From: Candidatus Omnitrophota bacterium
GTDB taxonomy: Bacteria > Omnitrophota > Gorgyraeia > Zapsychrales > Zapsychraceae
Assembly: GCA_016214285.1 (NCBI GenBank)
Contig: JACROV010000079.1
Span: 6,855-70,854 of the forward strand
Reading direction: 5' to 3'
DNA length: 64,000 nt
Shown here piece by piece: positions 8,997 through 20,154 of this stretch. Under the pieces are notes generated by a model. That model was not told the origin of the DNA and made no database searches. It saw nothing but the letters and a program-made list of their open reading frames with translations. Position numbers and translations under genes: made by a program. Within the stretch, counting starts at the first letter, position 1. Each line of letters begins with the position of its first letter.

Positions 8997-9677
8997 ATGA
9001 CGTTTCTTTTTACGCTGGTTTTGATTTTCTTCGCGTGGGCGCTGATCATTTTTGTCTTTTTCAAGGCGGAGATCCAGTCCACCAAAGAGAGGGATCCGGC
9101 CGCCCGCGGGATCGCGGAGATCGTGCTTTTATACCCGGGGCTTCACGCGGTCGTGGCTCATCGGATCAATCATTTCCTCTGGAAAATGAAGATACCGCTT
9201 TTACCCAGGGCATTGTCCCAGTTGACGCGTTTTTTTACCGGTATCGAGATCCACCCTGGAGCAGAGATCGGCAAGGGACTTTTTATCGACCACGGCATGG
9301 GTGTCGTCGTCGGCGAAACGGCCATTGTCGGGGATAACGTTACGCTGTTTCAGGGGGTCACCCTGGGAGGCACGGGCAAGGAAACCGGCAAGCGGCATCC
9401 GACGATCGGCAATAATGTGGTCATCGGCGCCGGCGCCAAGGTCTTGGGCAATATTACCGTCGGCGGCAACAGTTACGTCGGTGCCAACGCGGTCATTATC
9501 CGGGACGTTCCCTCCAACGCCACGGTGGTCGGTGTCCCGGGCCATGTCACCAAACAAGAAGGTAAAAAGATGGATCTGCTGATGGACCATGTCCATACTT
9601 CGGATCCGGTGATGCAGCATATGAAAGATCTGGTCCGGCGGGTCAAGACGCTCGAAGATAAAACCCCGGGGCAATAG
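8997..9677 (+). CDS. cysE: Serine O-acetyltransferase
   Basis: SATase N-terminal region plus a hexapeptide-repeat left-handed beta-helix. Confidence 0.85.
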
Positions 9678-13114: not shown

Positions 13115-13924
13115 GTGGATATGGGCCAAATAATACAAGTCCAGTTGGGCGAATACCGCGACGCGGATTATTATGACCTTAATGGTGTTGCCTGTGACCG
13201 CGGGGATTATGTGATCGTGGAAGTCGACCGCGGATCGGAGTTCGGCCTGGTCGTCTCCCAGGTGAGCGCCGTGTGTCCCCCGAAAACGGAAAGCAAGTCC
13301 CAGGGGCGTATCTTGCGCAAGGCGACTGAAGGCGATTTGAAGCAAATTGCCAACAACCGCACGAAGGTGCAGGACGCCATCGATAACTGCGTGAGCAAGA
13401 TCAGCGACCGCAAACTTCATATGAATATCGTCAAGGCCGAGTATACTTTTGATGCCAGCAAGATCATCTTTTTCTTTCTGGCCGACGGGCGCGTTGATTT
13501 TCGCAATCTGGTCAAAGACCTGGCGAAGGTGTTCCGCGTGCGCATCGAGCTTAAGCAGATCGGCGTGCGCGACAAGGCCAAGATCGTCGGCGGTTACGGG
13601 ATTTGCGGCCGCGAGCTGTGCTGTTCGTCTTATATGAATGGTTTCCATACGCTTTCCATCAAGATGGCCAAAGAGCAGGGGCTGCCTTTGAACCCGTCGC
13701 GTATCTCGGGGGTGTGCGGCCGCATCAAGTGCTGCATGGCTTACGAATTTCAGGTGTATAAAGAATTTTCCAAAGGCCTGCCGTCGGTCGGCGAGAAGAT
13801 CACCACCGAAGAAGGCAAGGGCAAAGTGGTCGACGTCAACATCCTCAAGCGCCTGGTCACCGTCGATGTCGGCGAAGGCAAGGTCATCAAAACTGCTTTC
13901 CCGAAAGAAGTTGGGGCCGGTTGA
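13115..13924 (+). CDS. ricT: PSP1 C-terminal domain protein YaaT/RicT
   Basis: PSP1 domain with cysteine cluster (ICGRELCC, CGRIKCC). Conserved neighbour of holB. Confidence 0.85.
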   Translation: MDMGQIIQVQLGEYRDADYYDLNGVACDRGDYVIVEVDRGSEFGLVVSQVSAVCPPKTESKSQGRILRKATEGDLKQIANNRTKVQDAIDNCVSKISDRKLHMNIVKAEYTFDASKIIFFFLADGRVDFRNLVKDLAKVFRVRIELKQIGVRDKAKIVGGYGICGRELCCSSYMNGFHTLSIKMAKEQGLPLNPSRISGVCGRIKCCMAYEFQVYKEFSKGLPSVGEKITTEEGKGKVVDVNILKRLVTVDVGEGKVIKTAFPKEVGAG

Positions 13925-13990: not shown

Positions 13991-14075
13991 CAGAGGCGGC
14001 GAATAACTCCAGCGTTTGATTCATTCCGAAATATCAATATTCCCGGGATGAATCAGCTGGAGTGACCACCCTTGT
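13990..14075 (+). repeat. Post-terminator repeat element, family B copy 1
   Basis: ttattcgccgcagaggcggcgaataa hairpin followed by a conserved ...ccgaaatatcaa...cccgggatgaatcagctgg block. A near-identical unit lies at 28707-28795. Confidence 0.6.
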
Positions 14076-14087
14076 TACACTTGTAAC
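14074..14087. promoter_or_regulatory. Conserved palindromic operator-like motif gttacacttgtaac (copy 1)
   Basis: Perfect 14-bp palindrome repeated at 16842-16855, where it overlaps a TTGACA-N16-TACACT promoter. Here it lies about 30 nt upstream of a small ORF with a good ribosome-binding site. Confidence 0.45.
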
Positions 14088-14113
14088 AAATTTGCTACAT
14101 GTAAGGAAGGTTA

Positions 14114-14281
14114 ATGGAAATTCTGAAGTGGTTTAAGATGTTTTTCCGTGAAAATAATAGGCGTCGATTATTGCGGCAGCAGTTAGAGAAAGAATCCAAG
14201 GTAACTCGGGCAGCCTCGCTGGAAGTACTCCACGAGATGGAAGAACTGGATGACGATTTGAACTGCGAATTCGGTCATTAA
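14114..14281 (+). CDS. Small hypothetical protein (56 aa)
   Basis: ATG with ribosome-binding site taaggaagg. Its 3' end overlaps the first GAATT hairpin. Below the 60-aa cutoff of the ORF track. Confidence 0.3.
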   Translation: MEILKWFKMFFRENNRRRLLRQQLEKESKVTRAASLEVLHEMEELDDDLNCEFGH

Positions 14282-14472
14282 TGACCGAATTTGAATTGCC
14301 CGGGCGACAGGTGAATTCAGTCGGTGCCGACTGAATTTGGACTGCCCAAGCGACAGGCAAATTCAACCGACATCGGCTGAATTCGAATTGCCCGAGACGT
14401 GAGATGAATTCCGCAGACGTCTGCGGAATTGCCCGCGGCAGGGACGCGGGGAAAAGCGGCGGAGGGAAAAGG
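14267..14472. repeat. Array D1: four GAATT-flanked 25-nt palindromic hairpins separated by (t)gaattgcccgggcgacag units, ending in a G-rich tract
   Basis: Hairpins gaattcggtcattaatgaccgaatt, gaattcagtcggtgccgactgaatt, aattcaaccgacatcggctgaatt and gaattccgcagacgtctgcggaatt. The terminal gaattgcccgcggcagggacgcggggaaaagcggcggagggaaaagg recurs at 16578 and 18011. Confidence 0.75.
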
Positions 14473-14559: not shown

Positions 14560-14760
14560 GTGGGCAAATATAAATTAAACAAAAAAATTGTAGTCATATC
14601 GTCTTTGGACGAAACCGATGAAAAGGATTATTGGAAGTCACGGACACCAACAGATAGATTGAAGGCCATTGAAATAAACAGGAGGATTGTATATGGATAT
14701 GCCCATACTTCCCCAAGATTTCAGAGTTTTTTTGAAGTTGCTCAACTCCAAAAGAATTGA
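14560..14760 (+). CDS. Small hypothetical protein (66 aa, GTG start), possible partner of the downstream nucleotidyltransferase
   Basis: Ribosome-binding site aaaggagaaacttGTG. The upstream portion of the listed ORF 14404..14760 covers repeats and is spurious. The 74-nt overlap with the next gene makes this call uncertain. Confidence 0.3.
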   Translation: MGKYKLNKKIVVISSLDETDEKDYWKSRTPTDRLKAIEINRRIVYGYAHTSPRFQSFFEVAQLQKN

Positions 14761-15142
14761 GTATCTGCTCATCGGCGGTTATGCCGTCGGCTATTACGGT
14801 TATCCACGCGCAACAGCTGATATGGATATATGGATCGCTATCAGCAAAGAGAACGCGAAGAAGATGACAGAAGCAATTAAGGATTTCGGCATGAAGGCTC
14901 CCGCTTTAAACGAGGGTATTTTTCTTGAGCCCGGGAAAATAATCAGGATGGGATATCCGCCGATAAGAATAGAAGTGCTGACAGAAATATCAGGAGTAAA
15001 TTTTAAACAATGCTATGCCCGGCGCGAAGAAATAAAAATTGATGGAATAAAAGTAAAAATGATATCATTGGGGGATCTTTTGAAAAATAAAAAGGCGAGT
15101 GGCCGGCATAAAGATCTAAATGATCTGGAAAATTTAAGATAA
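14687..15142 (+). CDS. Pol-beta superfamily nucleotidyltransferase (MNT/DUF6036-like), candidate TA component
   Basis: hG[GS]x9-13DxD NTase motif in LLIGGYAVGYYGYPRATADMDIWI. AT-rich relative to the genome. Confidence 0.6.
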   Translation: MYMDMPILPQDFRVFLKLLNSKRIEYLLIGGYAVGYYGYPRATADMDIWIAISKENAKKMTEAIKDFGMKAPALNEGIFLEPGKIIRMGYPPIRIEVLTEISGVNFKQCYARREEIKIDGIKVKMISLGDLLKNKKASGRHKDLNDLENLR

Positions 15143-15204
15143 CAAGCGGGTTGAGCGCTCAATTCAGACCAGGACGCTTCCGGAGTGTCCTGCGGCATTA
15201 ACAA

Positions 15205-15297
15205 GTGACGAAACTAAATGAGAAATATGTCTTCGAAATTTTACGTGACAACCCCGATTTACTACGTCAACGATAACCCGCGCATCGGGCACGCGTA
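15205..15297 (+). pseudogene. Displaced, diverged 5' fragment of metG ([26 protein letters not shown])
   Basis: About 85% nucleotide identity to the true metG start at 18634 ([26 protein letters not shown]). It ends in a stop after 30 codons. Confidence 0.7.
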
Positions 15298-15372
15298 ATG
15301 ATACCTGCCATCATCCTGTTTCTGCAAAAGAATGTTTGAGTTTTTTAAAGTGATAGTTTATAATTCTCAATA

Positions 15373-16605
15373 TGCGATTCGTTCATCGTCTCATCGAAAA
15401 TGAACTTTTAAAGGCCGCCCGCAATTTCCCGGCGATTCTCTTTGACCGGCCCGCGCCGGGCCGGGAAAACAACGCTTTTAAAAAAGTTGTTCCCCAAGGC
15501 CTCGTATTATCTCCTGGAAGACCCCGACATTGTTGCCCGCGTCCGGACTGATCCGCGTTCTTTTCTTGAAGAGATCAGGCTGCCGGTCATTCTCGATGAA
15601 ATCCAGAACGTCCCCGAACTGTTCAATTACGTGCGCGCGCGGATTGATAACGCTCCACAGAAGTTCGGACAGTGGTTTCTGACCGGGTCCCAGGAAGCCG
15701 GGCTCATGAAGGGGGTGACGGAGTCCATGGCTGGCCGCGTGGCCGTGTTTGAGCTTTTGCCGTTTTCGATAGGTGAGACATCCGGAGTTTCCATTTTTCG
15801 CGGAGGATTCCCGGAGGTTCTGGCCAGACCCCGGGCGGGCGATATCTGGTTCCGGTCGTACCTTCAGACGTATCTGGAAAGAGACGTGCGCGCGGTCAGC
15901 TCGATCAAGAGCGTGACGACATTCCGGCGTTTTTTGTCTCTGTTGGCCAGCCAGTGCGGGCAGATCCTGAACAAGACCGATCTCGCGGCCCCTTTGGGGG
16001 TGAGCGTGCCCACGTTGAGCGAATGGATCCATATCCTTGAGACCACGGGTCAGATCATCCTCGTGCCGCCTTTTTATGAAAATTTCGGCAAACGGATCAT
16101 CAAATCCCCAAAACTCTATTTTGTGGACTCCGGGTTGGCGTGTCATCTTTTGAATATCTCTTCCGAGAAAATGCTTTTTTCTTCGCCGTTTCTGGGAGCT
16201 GTCTTTGAAGGGTTCATCGCCGCGGAAATCATCAAATTCCAGATAAATACCGGCAAGAGAAAAGAGCTGTATTATTTTCGGGACCAGCAGGGCCTGGAAG
16301 TTGATTTTTTGATTCCGCAGGGGGACCGCCGGCTCATCCTTCTGGAGGCGGAGGCAACCAGGACGCTTCGGCCGCAGATGGCGGAACCCCTCAAACGGCT
16401 GGCGCACAATATCGCGCGTTACGAGGTTGAGCAGTGGGTTGTCTGTCCTGATTCCCAAAAAGGAGAACCCCTGCGCGCCTTAAGCCCGGGCACAAAGGCC
16501 CTTTCCGTGAAGGGGCTGTTGAGTGCTTTGAAGGGGCAGCTTTCCGGAACACCCGGTGCTGTCAAGGGCCGGACGGCGAATTCCACCGGCGCCGGTGGAA
16601 TTTGA
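15373..16605 (+). pseudogene. AAA_14/DUF4143-family ATPase, frameshifted near 15440
   Basis: Frame 1 from the ATG at 15373 gives MRFVHRLIENELLKAARNFPAILFDRPAPG. The P-loop TGPRRAGKTTLL continues in another frame (the listed ORF starts at TTG 15442). One extra base at about 15437-15440 separates the two frames. The C-terminus runs into the hairpin array. Confidence 0.6.
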
Positions 16606-16716
16606 ATTGCCCGGGCGACAGACGAATTGAGTCGGTGCCGACTGAATTGTAGTGTAAATTTGAATTCGTCCCGACGTATCGTCGGGACGAATTGCCCGCG
16701 GCAGGGGGGGGGGGAT
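16578..16716. repeat. Array D2: three GAATT-flanked palindromic hairpins plus a gaattgcccgcggcagg(g)n tract
   Basis: gaattccaccggcgccggtggaatt, gaattgagtcggtgccgactgaatt and gaattcgtcccgacgtatcgtcgggacgaatt, then gcccgcggcagggggggggg. Confidence 0.75.
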
Positions 16717-16821
16717 CCGACCAGAGGACACTTTGGGAGTGTCCGGCGGCGGGTGTTAAGTTGTGGTTGCCCCGGAGTTTGGTACGTCCCCGGAATCCCC
16801 TCGTTTTTAGCAGAAAATGAA

Positions 16822-16862
16822 TTGACATATGGCTGTGCCATGTTACACTTGTAACAGAATTG
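16822..16862 (+). promoter_or_regulatory. Sigma70-like promoter (TTGACA-N16-TACACT) overlapping palindrome gttacacttgtaac, upstream of the wHTH-MNT gene
   Basis: -35 TTGACA at 16822-16827 and -10 TACACT at 16844-16849. The palindrome at 16842-16855 is identical to 14074-14087. Confidence 0.5.
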
Positions 16863-16947
16863 TTACAAAGGCCGCCCTTTAATATTTCAAAGGCGAGCCT
16901 CGCCATTTCACCAAGAAAGGAAATGGCGAAAATAGCGGGAGCTTCTT

Positions 16948-17556
16948 ATGCGTTTTCATGAATCTTTTCTGAGTGTTTTAAGATCGGACTTGAAGCTGAA
17001 GATCGTCAGATTTCTGCTCGATCATCAGGCCTCCATGAGCGAGCGCGAGATCGCCGCCGTCTTGAAGATCTCCCACATGAGCGTCAACCGCACCATGCAG
17101 GAACTGGCCCAGGCGAACCTTGTCCATTACCTGACCGTGGGCAAGGCGCATCTTTGGCAAGTGAACCGCCGCAGTTTTGCTTACAAGGCCTTGCGCCGAT
17201 TGTTCATTAGTTTGGAAAAGTCCCCGGATCCCCTGGAAGAATTAAAACAGGTCCTTTTAAAGCACTTGCCGCGAGGGTTGGTCAAGAGGATCGTCTTGTT
17301 CGGTTCAGTGGCGAAGGCTTCGGAGGGACCCCAGAGCGATATTGACGTCTTTATACTGGTCAATGATGCCCAAGGTCAACAGAGGCTTGAGGCGGCTATT
17401 GAAAAACTTTCTAATGAATGCCTGGAGGTTTTTGGGAACAGGCTGTCCCCGTATATTCTCACCGAAGGGCAATATAAACAAAGGCGGGATTCAGGTATTA
17501 TTGCCCAGGTCGAACAGGGGATTCAGATCTATCCCAACGGCAAGGCCGTGTCATGA
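16948..17556 (+). CDS. Winged-helix DNA-binding domain fused to a minimal nucleotidyltransferase (MNT antitoxin-like)
   Basis: MarR/ArsR-like N-terminal HTH. C-terminal NTase motif LFGSVAKASEGPQSDIDVFILV. Its stop overlaps the start of the HEPN gene. Confidence 0.7.
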   Translation: MRFHESFLSVLRSDLKLKIVRFLLDHQASMSEREIAAVLKISHMSVNRTMQELAQANLVHYLTVGKAHLWQVNRRSFAYKALRRLFISLEKSPDPLEELKQVLLKHLPRGLVKRIVLFGSVAKASEGPQSDIDVFILVNDAQGQQRLEAAIEKLSNECLEVFGNRLSPYILTEGQYKQRRDSGIIAQVEQGIQIYPNGKAVS

Positions 17557-17963
17557 CGTCTAAATTCAAAACAAGGGATGTGGGTAAGGCCCATTACGCC
17601 AATTTTTTGAAAAAGGCGGAAGAGTGTTTTCACGCGGCGCGGAATTCCTTCGCGGCTCAGGAATGGAACGCCGCGGCCATCAACGCCATTCATTGCGCTA
17701 TTGCCGCCTGCGACGCGATGTGCGTTTATTTTTTGGGCAAGCGCCACTCGGGTGAAGACCATAATGACGCGGCAGGGTTGTTCAAGGCCATCCGCCACGA
17801 TGAAGAGATCAATACCAACGCGAACCGGATTTTGAGGATTTTACGCATGAAAAGTATGGCGGAATATGAAGAGCGGCTGGTCTATAAATCCGAGGCCGAG
17901 AAGGTCCTGAAGGACTGCGAACGGTTTTGGGAGTTTGTGCAGGAACAGCTGCCTAAAGGCTGA
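17553..17963 (+). CDS. HEPN domain protein (toxin-like partner of the MNT)
   Basis: Rx4-6H motif GKRHSGEDH in a ~136-aa alpha-helical protein. It overlaps the MNT gene by 4 nt. Confidence 0.65.
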   Translation: MTSKFKTRDVGKAHYANFLKKAEECFHAARNSFAAQEWNAAAINAIHCAIAACDAMCVYFLGKRHSGEDHNDAAGLFKAIRHDEEINTNANRILRILRMKSMAEYEERLVYKSEAEKVLKDCERFWEFVQEQLPKG

Positions 17964-17972
17964 TGCTTAACC

Positions 17973-17997
17973 CCCGGCAACACCGGGTGTTGCCGGG
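17973..17997. repeat. GGCAACACCGGGTGTTGCC palindromic element, family E copy 1 (intergenic)
   Basis: Perfect 25-bp palindrome cccggcaacaccgggtgttgccggg. Other copies at 24383-24403 (inside alr) and 61947-61975 (inside lnt). Confidence 0.8.
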
Positions 17998-18010
17998 GCC
18001 GGGCGGACAG

Positions 18011-18122
18011 CGAATTCAGTCGACGTCGACTGAATTTGAATTCGTCAGATATCTGACGAATTCGCCAGCTAGCTGGCGAATTGCCCGCGGCAGGGGTGCT
18101 GGAAAGCGGCAGAGGGGAAAGG
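18011..18122. repeat. Array D3: two GAATT-flanked palindromic hairpins plus a gaattgcccgcggcagggg... G-rich tract
   Basis: cgaattcagtcgacgtcgactgaatt and gaattcgtcagatatctgacgaattc, then gccagctagctggcgaattgcccgcggcaggggtgctggaaagcggcagaggggaaagg. Confidence 0.75.
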
Positions 18123-18169
18123 TACACGTTTACGGGGAATATCGGTACAGAAATACATTGGATATCCAG

Positions 18170-18637
18170 ATGAAGAAGCCAGTAATTCAGTTAGAGCGTA
18201 CAGGTTGTGGTATCGCGAGCGTGGCTGCGATCGTCGGTTTCTCTTACCTGAAAATGAAGTCGATCGCGAATTCTTTGGGTGTCTTTGCGCATGACGAGAC
18301 TTTGTGGTCGAACCCGTCTCACGTGCGGAAGTTGTTGAGGCGTTTCGGCGTGAGAGCTGGCTCACGTGAAATACCTTTCCGCTCTTGGGAGACGCTTCCT
18401 GATCTTGCACTGTTGTCGATCAAGTGGCATCTTGAGAAAGGCCGTCCTTATTGGCATTGGGTAGTGTTCGTTCGAGAAAATGGGCGATCCTATGTGCTGG
18501 ATTCAAAAAAGCGTCTGCGTAGCAACGTCAGAACGGACTTTGGGCGTATGAAGCCAAAATGGTATATCCCGGTCATTGATGTCCAGCAATGCGTTCAATG
18601 CGATCGCGCCGGCAATAATAGACAGATAGAATCATGA
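18170..18637 (+). CDS. Peptidase C39-like (papain-fold) domain protein
   Basis: Catalytic-Cys context QLERTGCGIASVAAI and His context WHWVVFV. The real start MKKPV is about codon 70 of listed ORF 17963..18637, whose N-terminus is repeat DNA. The coordinate may be off by one. Confidence 0.55.
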   Translation: MKKPVIQLERTGCGIASVAAIVGFSYLKMKSIANSLGVFAHDETLWSNPSHVRKLLRRFGVRAGSREIPFRSWETLPDLALLSIKWHLEKGRPYWHWVVFVRENGRSYVLDSKKRLRSNVRTDFGRMKPKWYIPVIDVQQCVQCDRAGNNRQIES

Positions 18638-20154
18638 AGACTCCATTTTACGTCACAACTCCTATCTATTACGTCAACGATAATCCACACATCGGGCACG
18701 CGTACACGACGATCCTTGCTGATGTTTTGGCGCGTTACCACCGTAACGAGGGCGATGAAGTCTTTTTCCTGACGGGTCTGGATGAGCACGGGCAAAAGGT
18801 CCAGCAGGCGGCGCAGAAGCGTGGAGTTCCCGAGCAGCAGCATTGCGACGAGCTCGCGCCGCGGTTTTCCGACCTTTGGAAGAAGCTCGAGATCCAGAAC
18901 GACGATTTTATCCGCACCACCGAGCCGCGGCATATCAAGGCCGTCCAGGCCGCGCTGCAGAAAGTGTATGACGCGGGGGACGTTTATACGGATGAATACG
19001 AAGGCTGGTACTCGGTCGCTGAGGAACGGTTCATCACCGATACCGAGAAAGATTCCGGACATTTCCGCGACGTTAAAAAACTAAAGGAGCGCAATTATTT
19101 CTTCAAGATGAGCAAATATCAGCAAAAGCTCATCGACTATATCAACGCCCATCCGGAATTTATCCAGCCCGAACATCGCAAGAATGAGGTCTTGGGATTT
19201 TTACGCCAGCCGCTGGGGGACCTGTGCATCTCGCGTCCCAAATCGCGCATGGGCTGGGGCATCGAGATTCCTTTTGATAAAGAGTATGTCACCTATGTCT
19301 GGTTCGACGCGCTGATCAATTACATCACGGCATCGGGATATTTGGTAGATGAGAAAGAATTCAAGAAGTGGTGGCCGGCGTCGGTCCATTTGATCGGCAA
19401 AGACATTTTGACGACCCACGCGGTGTACTGGCCGACGATGCTTTTTTCATTGGGGCTGCCGCTGCCGAAAACCATCTTTGCCCACGGCTGGTGGCTCATC
19501 GGCGAAACGAAAATGAGCAAGTCGTTGGGGAATGTCGTTGATCCTTTAAGTTTGGTTGACCAATACGGCGTTGACCCGGTGCGCTATTACCTGATGCGCG
19601 AGATGGTCCTGGGGCAGGACGCCAATTTCACCATGGAATCGTTCATCAAACGCTACAACAGCGACCTGGCGAATGATTTCGGGAATCTTTTGAATCGTGT
19701 CAGTGGTCTTATTGGAAAATATTTTGACGGCTGCGTTCCCAAAGAAGGTCAGGCGTGGGCGCCGGATAAGGAGATCAGGAAGGTTGCCGACGGGCTGGCC
19801 AAGAATATCGAAGAGTTGATCAATGGCATGCGCGTCCACGAGGCCCTTGAACAGGTTTTGGTGTTGATCCGCAACACCAACGTGTATATGGAACACCAGG
19901 CGCCTTGGAAAGAGGCGAAAGAGAATTTGGAACGGGCGGGAACGATCCTTTATACAGCAACGGAGGCGCTGCGCGTCAGCGCGATTCTGCTTCTTCCGGT
20001 TATGCCCGCGAAGGCGAATACGGTTTTAGAGATTTTAGGAGCGGTGGGGACAGAGCCGTGCTGGGGGCAGCTCAAGGCCGGGGCAAAATTACAAAGCCAC
20101 GACGCGCTTTTCCCGCGATTAGACGCTGAAGGCAAGGTTATAACTAAGAGTTGA
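18634..20154 (+). CDS. metG: Methionine--tRNA ligase (short form)
   Basis: HIGH motif (PHIGHAYT), KMSKS, connective-peptide zinc-knuckle region and an anticodon-binding domain. No C-terminal EMAP domain. Confidence 0.95.
   Translation: [506 protein letters not shown]

Follow-up and report, generated by a model that had tools for sequence, protein, structure and literature searches.

The window analysed here is a 64-kb stretch of a Candidatus Omnitrophota metagenome-assembled genome, and our subject is the run of genes immediately upstream of its metG: a minimal nucleotidyltransferase (MNT) carrying a winged helix-turn-helix (wHTH) domain, a HEPN protein, and a C39-like cysteine peptidase that is set apart from the first two by an array of hairpins. 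These genes and the elements that accompany them, with positions counted in the window, are the following.

16822-16849, forward strand: sigma-70-like promoter upstream of the MNT gene (TTGACA, 16 nt, TACACT, with TG before the -10; 10 of 12 matches)
16841-16867, no strand: overlapping palindromes TGTTACA-CT-TGTAACA and TGTAACA-GAAT-TGTTACA, covering the -10; candidate operator
16948-17556, forward strand: wHTH and MNT, 202 aa
17553-17963, forward strand: HEPN protein, 136 aa
17966-18110, no strand: hairpin array 3
18170-18637, forward strand: solitary C39-like cysteine peptidase, 155 aa (homologue conservation, fold match, substitution rates)
18634-20154, forward strand: metG, methionyl-tRNA synthetase (translation; tRNA-synt_1g in syntenic relatives), belonging to neither module

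The evidence points to two functionally independent units lying side by side, a Class II HEPN/MNT module and a solitary cytosolic C39-type cysteine peptidase, and we consider this arrangement likely. A sequence-only reading of the same DNA had placed three open reading frames (ORFs) here, the last with a 155-aa product, and translation and homologue alignment confirm these positions. The existence of 629 homologues of the HEPN protein and 3057 of the peptidase excludes the reading of either ORF as a product of chance.

The C39-like protein and its family

The mechanical ORF of the peptidase gene begins at 17963; alignment with 20 homologues sets the true start at the ATG at 18170, and the resulting protein is identical to MBI5024689.1 (HZC18_06800). 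It contains both motifs quoted in the sequence-only reading (QLERTGCGIASV and WHWVVFV), and the papain-fold, C39-like identity proposed there is upheld by its catalytic residues. Across 41 full-length members, down to 30% identity, there is no variation at C13, H96 and D111, conservation of Q7 is 90% or more, and Trp95, Trp97, Arg121 and Asp123 are conserved too, while Gln7, Cys13, His96 and Asp111 are all invariant in 21 close homologues. The Cys/His/Asp spacing of 13/96/111 is close to that of the ComA peptidase domain, which we take to be 17/96/112. Pfam Peptidase_C39 (PF03412, MEROPS clan CA) is matched by 36 of the 41 members (30-56% identical to the window protein; best match 1.5e-11), and the homologues P0261 and P0244 exceed its gathering score. 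Direct searches with the window protein against Pfam, NCBIfam, PADLOC, PHROGs and PDB sequences gave nothing significant, PDB sequence and profile searches included, and its weak match to Tox-PLDMTX (E = 0.053) lies below the cut-off.

The AlphaFold model of the protein reached a predicted local distance difference test (pLDDT) score of 73.5 and a predicted template modelling (TM) score, pTM, of 0.69. Compared with the PDB by Foldseek, it matched PCAT1 (7t55; E = 8e-4, TMq 0.56) and the ComA peptidase domain (5xe9/3k8u; TM 0.50-0.59), and further matches included staphopain and papain-like toxins (8ssm, 9l5u) of contact-dependent inhibition (CDI) and type VI secretion systems (T6SS). The best viral structural match was a Bacillus phage protein that stands alone and is named 'Peptidase C39 domain-containing protein'; further phage proteins of 125-145 aa came next. 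Conservation with homologues extends from about 15-20 nt before the ATG to about residue 137; the last 18 residues (~137-155) form a tail that is unique to this copy, poorly modelled, and runs into the metG start codon. We consider it very likely that the window protein is a papain-fold thiol enzyme. A RAYT or IS200-type transposase, suggested by the WHW motif beside REP-like hairpins, was also considered; the protein has no HUH motif, and both its fold and its Pfam signal are those of C39.

With the C39 domains of PCAT/AMS transporters (ComA, PCAT1, LahT), the protein shares a papain-like fold of about 135 aa and the oxyanion-hole Gln six residues before the catalytic Cys. Unlike them, it lacks transmembrane and ABC domains, has no adjacent transporter, HlyD-like protein or Gly-Gly-leader peptide, is too divergent to match the Pfam model, and is cytosolic and solitary. 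The claim that this is a C39-like peptidase without an ABC transporter therefore stands: the protein is a single domain, and ABC transporter, HlyD and bacteriocin families are absent from the 25 most frequent (of 125) neighbour Pfam families listed for the loci described below. Phages, too, encode C39-like proteins that stand alone (for example in Bacillus phage vB_BcoS-136, A0A3G3BVL7, and in Pseudomonas phage PMBT14); these and the papain-like toxins (CdiA-CT 8ssm; 9l5u) are likewise single domains of 125-145 aa with a similar fold (Foldseek E 1.5e-4 to 8e-3), but their sequence identity to the window protein is only 14-18%. A tblastn search of a phage collection gave no match. The papain-like toxins (CdiA-CT/Tox-PLDMTX) differ further in having an adjacent immunity gene and a delivery domain, neither of which is found here, and the peptidase gene has no conserved gene downstream.

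Since the catalytic Cys stands at position 13 and the protein has no signal peptide, no membrane segment and no N-terminal extension, it must act in the cytosol. There it would be an active thiol endopeptidase cutting after a small-residue (Gly-Gly-like) motif, with its substrate presumably encoded elsewhere in the genome; to a specificity of the Gly-Gly leader type we give slightly less than an even chance. An alternative is that the Cys-His-Asp set serves a chemistry other than proteolysis (acyl transfer, deamidation or glycoside hydrolysis), for which there are reported precedents among papain-fold and C39-like proteins. According to one report (PMC13642728), an archaeal C39-like protein that likewise stands alone is inactive on Gly-Gly peptides and hydrolyses galactoside analogues; 17 of the 41 relatives also match Guanylate_cyc_2 (PF09778) and one the separate family ACTMAP-like_C, and the 64 kb offer no Gly-Gly substrate nearby. 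However, the archaeal protein has Asn in the third position, whereas the full Gln/Cys/His/Asp set is conserved here, and it is true C39 peptidase domains that match best in sequence and in structure, which makes a non-peptidase role quite improbable.

The family is large and widely spread. The closest 120 of the 3057 homologues are 69-83% identical, one of them being the identical protein, and the few among these 120 that carry a taxon name belong to Nitrospirota, Burkholderiales and Thermoanaerobaculia. An exhaustive profile search resolved 586 clusters at the 50% identity level. Members of this 137-155-aa family retain 50-80% identity across Omnitrophota, Nitrospirota, Proteobacteria, Acidobacteriota, Planctomycetota and Bacteroidota, whereas the C39 domains of transporters are probably far less conserved. 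All five of the NCBI/RefSeq records looked up name the protein 'hypothetical protein'. For genomic context we used 63 loci from a scan of one genome per species and two further contigs, giving 65 loci besides the window. The 63 loci span Nitrospirota, Gamma-, Beta- and Deltaproteobacteria, Acidobacteriota, Nitrospinota, Planctomycetota, Bacteroidota, Hydrogenedentota and Chloroflexota, with Neptuniibacter, Motiliproteus, Thiomicrorhabdus, Methylobacillus and Desulfobulbus as cultured carriers. Proteins of the family from cultured bacteria include WP_226772077 of Methylobacillus gramineus, WP_279408368 of Thiomicrorhabdus sp. zzn3 and WP_051553425 of Desulfobulbus elongatus.

Strong purifying selection acts on the peptidase gene. 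Synonymous divergence (dS) could be estimated for eight pairs, and in these the ratio of nonsynonymous divergence (dN) to dS was about 0.08-0.16 (dN 0.10-0.30, dS 0.74-1.9); dS was saturated in the other 20 pairs. GC content at third codon positions (GC3) tracked that of the host genome (r = 0.85, 66 loci), which indicates that most copies are long-term residents, while in the closest clade a dS of about 1 (0.7-1.4) between different phyla, together with some GC mismatches, points to horizontal transfer. No partner gene emerged from the neighbourhoods. When all ORFs of 50 aa or more in the 66 loci were compared with one another by BLAST, only overlapping-frame artefacts within a locus and local synteny came out; no neighbour ORF family was shared by more than five of the 65 loci, and those five represent local Nitrospirota synteny. 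The 123 nearest flanking proteins fell into 125 Pfam families, the most frequent being generic methyltransferases, with five, and most neighbours were housekeeping or metabolic. As for a mobile-element signature around the ORF, no k-mer was common to the 200-nt flanks, and likeness among homologues upstream of the gene was loose and confined to about 15-20 nt before the ATG, a TTGtGGGnAT-like ribosome-binding region.

Most long forms that might be read as domain fusions look like miscalled starts or read-through. The only real-looking fusion, SH3-SH3-C39, is encoded on the 555-kb P. aeruginosa RW109 megaplasmid LT969519.1 (L078 3632-4411) and hints at a protein substrate. Other distant members were seen on Pseudomonas plasmids of 150 kb, with an integrase and a UvrD helicase nearby (L079 3971-4429), and on an IMG/VR viral contig, flanked by a CBS/HEPN-like gene and an Nmad2 gene (L077 3157-6122).

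Two further functions may be weighed against this background. On its own, the gene could encode a papain-like toxin or an effector of abortive infection whose activation leads to cleavage of a conserved cellular protein. Such a role would suit an islet of toxin-antitoxin (TA) and defence candidates (a PDC-S01 ATPase, a PDC-M05-like pair and a DUF2204 nucleotidyltransferase pair), the Foldseek matches to 8ssm and 9l5u with the weak Tox-PLDMTX match, and the distant homologues beside an integrase on P. aeruginosa plasmids or beside Nmad2 and HEPN-like genes on the IMG/VR contig; horizontal spread, implied by a dS of 0.7-1.4 between phyla, fits it as well, and 50-80% identity across phyla would agree with a conserved cellular target. 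Yet there is no conserved immunity or partner gene, neighbours elsewhere are mostly housekeeping or metabolic, PADLOC gave no match, and most copies, by their GC3, have long resided in their hosts, so that we regard this role as unlikely. Equally unlikely, in our estimation, is that the family constitutes a new functional class of cytosolic cysteine protease that works unaided on some cellular or viral protein of high conservation, for instance a single-gene defence or regulatory protease, and spreading as a bare ORF without recognisable mobile-element machinery.

The HEPN/MNT pair

The MNT (5') and HEPN (3') genes are adjacent, with PF01909 and PF05168 both above the Pfam gathering scores, and the two-gene module with an N-terminal wHTH that the sequence-only reading had described is borne out by these matches. 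So is the overlap of stop and start that it had noted: the HEPN ATG (17553-17555) and the MNT stop (17554-17556) share the sequence ATGA. In the MNT, NTP_transf_2 scores 37.1 bits (cut-off 21, 4.2e-9), with a Polbeta match as well. Its N-terminal wHTH (about residues 5-80) matches GntR, HTH_24, MarR, ArsR and Lrs14-type models, with many wHTH families hitting residues 9-76, and the minimal nucleotidyltransferase domain occupies about residues 95-190. The GSX10DXD motif, read from the translation, is intact (G119-S120-VAKASEGPQS-D131-I-D133) and aligns with the active sites of the ANT(3'') and DrrA adenylyltransferases. Residues 5-182 match the PADLOC profile PDC-M05A (E = 4.7e-19); with this full-length match to a catalogued family, the wHTH fusion is standard for this MNT subfamily and nothing unusual.

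The HEPN protein has PF05168 as its only Pfam match (35.2 bits, cut-off 22, 1.6e-8) and no match in NCBIfam. The best 120 of its 629 homologues share 70-94% identity with it; PF05168 is present in all except about ten, and JGI often labels them UPF0332. Its AlphaFold model (pLDDT 86.6) has helices at 12-34, 38-61, 70-78, 84-105 and 112-132, and the best structural match is AF0298 (2hsb; Foldseek TM 0.71/0.76, root-mean-square deviation 2.7 A), while a profile search of PDB sequences with the HEPN alignment gave chance gyrase matches only. The canonical HEPN motif is located where helix 3 ends or the helix 3-4 loop begins (PMC3710099), and here the end of helix 3 reads R98-M-K-S-M-A103-E104-Y105. 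The Rx4-6H pattern fails at this site: across aligned close homologues the His is replaced by Ala103, while the Arg and the Tyr at +7 are kept. Elsewhere, R64-HSGED-H70 satisfies the pattern but sits in the helix 2-3 insert. In 20 aligned homologues R98, A103, E104, Y105, R64 and H70 are all invariant.

This pattern is found in AF0298-type (HEPN-T) proteins, in which the motif His is missing and a second conserved His upstream could form an alternative active site, as proposed in 2013 (PMC3710099). With AF0298 the window protein shares the fold, the missing canonical His and a conserved upstream His, and R64-x5-H70 may by analogy be that alternative site. The absence of the Rx4-6H His at the canonical site weakens the reading of the HEPN protein as an RNase toxin, for which the motif had been suggested as a check, with the alternative His proposed for the AF0298 type remaining as a candidate.

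Pairs of PF05168 and PF01909 are known as 'Class II HEPN/MNT' and lack RX4HXY (Yao et al. 2020, PMC7641770). On its domains, the window pair is best placed in this already known class, as PDC-M05-like, and not with HepT/MntA, as the sequence-only reading had it. Like Class II and PDC-M05 pairs, it has the MNT first, an overlapping stop and start, both Pfam domains above threshold and a full-length PDC-M05A match. It resembles HepT/MntA, the Class I, type VII TA system of Shewanella (SO_3166/SO_3165), in having an MNT with GSX10DXD followed by a small HEPN protein, and in that Tyr105 follows Arg98 at a distance of exactly seven residues, which matches the RX4HXY site of HepT, where Y104 is the Tyr that MntA poly-AMPylates (PMC7641770). 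It differs in that its HEPN protein belongs to PF05168 and not to DUF86 (PF01934) or PF08780, that RX4AEY replaces RX4HXY with the canonical His absent, and that the MNT has an extra N-terminal wHTH and scores 28.1 bits against the NCBIfam MntA_antitoxin equivalog, below the cut-off of 60.

The pair recurs in both related and unrelated genomes. Five contigs of closely related groundwater Omnitrophota (L070-L074) hold the same 202-aa MNT and 136-aa HEPN genes at the same place, in the order cysS-tmk-holB-PSP1, HEPN/MNT pair, MazE-like and PemK pair, metG, and a pair of 203 and 135 aa is found in an unrelated context between enoyl-CoA hydratase and menaquinone genes (L075/L076); the gene overlap recurs in all of these.

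We propose that the HEPN protein would act as the effector or toxin, and that the nucleotidyltransferase domain would bind it and probably nucleotidylylate the conserved Tyr105, which would neutralise it. Any RNA cleavage by HEPN would have to rely on Arg98 and, since Ala103 takes the place of the canonical His, on the invariant His70 upstream. Expression may be self-controlled, the wHTH binding the TGTTACA palindromes over its own promoter so that the operon would be autoregulated. The promoter at 16822-16849 is the sole promoter-like site in 16500-18700, and one such site is no more than shuffled sequences give (mean 1.5); its sequence is kept in the relative L071 (3305-3350). The palindrome TGTTACACTTGTAACA occurs twice in the 64 kb, at 14073-14088 and 16841-16856, against 0.2 copies expected by chance, and the wHTH-MNT might regulate both sites. 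The copy at 14073 stands about 25 nt (14089-14113) before a 55-aa ORF (14114-14281), relatives of which in L147 and L071 likewise precede hairpin arrays.

A serious rival is that the pair is no TA module but a two-subunit nucleotidyltransferase under wHTH control, in which HEPN is a non-catalytic, substrate-binding subunit. The canonical catalytic His is absent, HEPN domains that serve as substrate-binding modules of nucleotidyltransferases are known to lose the motif (PMC3710099), and PDC-M05, a candidate defence system that is catalogued but not validated and that pairs a nucleotidyltransferase with a HEPN protein, has an unconfirmed antiviral or TA role (PMC12988326). The MNT-first order and overlapping genes, the invariant His70/Arg64 and conserved Tyr105, and the mobile, patchy distribution and position within a TA islet nevertheless fit a TA-like module, and we hold the two-subunit enzyme to be rather unlikely.

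Relation between the pair and the peptidase gene

The adjacency of the three genes had raised the possibility that the peptidase processes a component of the HEPN/MNT module. If so, the genes would form one module in which the peptidase processes or degrades MNT or HEPN, for example as a trigger of toxin release. They are indeed adjacent and on the same strand, and since neither a terminator nor a promoter is predicted between the HEPN gene and the peptidase gene, they may be co-transcribed. The distribution of the genes speaks otherwise. Neither MNT nor HEPN was found near a peptidase homologue in any of the 65 other loci (phmmer with the window MNT and HEPN against all ORFs of the loci); with the DUF2204 and AAA proteins of the window included as queries, the matches were the window itself and one unrelated DUF2204. 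Conversely, the same HEPN/MNT pair occurs without the peptidase in L070-L076, and in the sister genomes L070-L074 the MazE/PemK-like pair fills the slot before metG that the peptidase occupies in the window. The HEPN and peptidase genes are moreover separated by a 145-nt boundary array. The single-module interpretation is thus largely refuted by distribution, and we consider it very improbable.

The other option raised in the sequence-only reading, that the peptidase is an independent cargo gene, is the one the data favour: the gene is an interchangeable passenger of a hot spot. In this genome it came in as a bare ORF, placed after the last hairpin array and before the start codon of metG, and its product would not act on the HEPN/MNT proteins.

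Several observations weigh against our reading of two independent units, a Class II pair and a C39-type peptidase, and should be considered alongside it. The array has no T tract and no promoter is predicted between the HEPN and peptidase genes, so that MNT, HEPN, peptidase and metG may be co-transcribed and a local regulatory link is possible. The HEPN protein matches no PADLOC PDC-M05B profile at E <= 0.1, in which it differs from PDC-M05. C39 membership is assigned because relatives match and the model fits, with moderate model confidence (pLDDT 73.5, TM about 0.55), while the window protein itself reaches no Pfam C39 model (E > 1). Finally, a regular-expression scan of all 25-150-aa ORFs in the 64 kb found no credible Gly-Gly leader, only two implausible matches inside other genes.

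The islet and the meaning of the locus

The genes described above occupy the distal part of a variable islet of 4.7 kb between PSP1/ricT (13115-13924) and metG (18634-20154), and the flanking gene order, cysS-tmk-holB-PSP1 on one side and metG-mtnA on the other, is kept in relatives. The islet contains, in order:

14114-14281: small ORF, 55 aa
14264-14460: hairpin array 1
14560-15142: 66-aa ORF and DUF2204/DUF6036 nucleotidyltransferase
15219-15297: remnant of the metG 5' end
15442-16605: AAA_14/DUF4143 ATPase (PADLOC PDC-S01, E = 4e-93)
16548-16750: hairpin array 2
then the HEPN/MNT pair, hairpin array 3 and the peptidase gene, at the positions listed at the outset

The array at 17966-18110 comprises one GC-rich hairpin followed by three perfect GAATTC-stem-GAATT hairpins and the end motif GAATTGCCCGCGGCAGG; its predicted fold reaches -92 kcal/mol (z = -5.3 against shuffled sequences), and we regard it as a boundary element of the islet. 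The 16-nt end motif has three sites only in the 64 kb, all at islet arrays, and in a metagenome scan its matches were nearly all due to chance, the single true relative being L147. The homologous arrays at 14264-14460, 16548-16750 and 17966-18110 are confined to the islet within the 64 kb, one after each gene cassette, and each consists of two to four perfect hairpins of the form GAATTC-variable stem-loop-stem-GAATT. The stems vary yet stay complementary (GGTCAT/ATGACC, AGTCGG/CCGACT, CACCGG/CCGGTG, AGTCGA/TCGACT). Arrays likewise stand behind each cassette in relatives (L071 3213-3250, 4427-4575 and 5241-5402; L147 about 9040-9150, reverse strand). None of the arrays has a T tract. They look like cassette-boundary, recombination or RNA-processing elements. 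An assignment as integron attC sites is unsupported, since the arrays are several short perfect hairpins and not one long imperfect hairpin; integrases were not searched for systematically. From the last array to metG there are only about 35 nt in relatives (L071 5402-5437), compared with the stretch 18106-18169 that precedes the peptidase ORF in the window.

A dead copy of the metG 5' end lies in the islet (15165-15297). It consists of the hairpin that precedes metG (GGACGCTTCCGGAGTGTCC), a start codon and 26 codons as far as the HIGH motif, and its end reads CATCGGGCACGCGTA. The live metG (18634-18704) has the same 35-nt stretch with three differences, the last 15 nt being identical. Between the two copies are 3.4 kb that hold the PDC-S01-like ATPase, the HEPN/MNT pair and the C39-like gene; it looks as if this DNA had been inserted into the metG 5' end, or had recombined there, replacing that end. 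No integrase lies between the two copies, and no systematic integrase search was made.

The peptidase stop (18635-18637) and the metG start (18634) overlap by 4 nt. In the window metG lacks a recognisable Shine-Dalgarno sequence, and it starts within the C39-like gene's stop codon; to be expressed, this essential gene seems to need read-through from, or coupling to, the upstream accessory genes. Elsewhere in the islet, the 66-aa ORF (VGKYKLNKKIVVISSLDETDEKDYWKSRTPTDRLKAIE...) overlaps the start of the 151-aa DUF2204/DUF6036 nucleotidyltransferase (14560-15142), and the two probably form a further small TA-like pair. The PDC-S01-like ATPase (15372-16605) is apparently frameshifted near its start: about 24 initial residues (MRFVHRLIENELLKAARNFPAILF...) are read in another frame (ORF 15372-15551), and a single extra T in CTCTTTGACC near 15440 parts these N-terminal residues from the P-loop (L)TGPRRAGKTT. 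The gene is either a pseudogene or the result of an assembly error.

As for the meaning of the locus, the version in which the three genes form one module should not be propagated. The HEPN/MNT part is new in one detail only, namely that in this subfamily the HepT motif has kept its acceptor Tyr but not its catalytic His. The subfamily is thereby a convenient test case for whether Class II modules are still neutralised by AMPylation and whether they use the alternative His proposed in 2013. The peptidase part weighs more, as it brings to light a family of transporter-less C39 domains that is large and unannotated, is conserved to an unusual degree, keeps its active site intact and has no partner in the genome. 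The window protein is a new, unannotated member of the C39 family; its transporter-less, solitary form is one that phages have as well, uncharacterised. If active on Gly-Gly-type leaders, such a protein could act as a natural stand-alone leader peptidase, of the kind that chemists working on RiPPs (peptides made by the ribosome and modified after translation) now obtain by truncating transporters (LahT150); if its target is cellular, it would represent a new cytosolic protease function.

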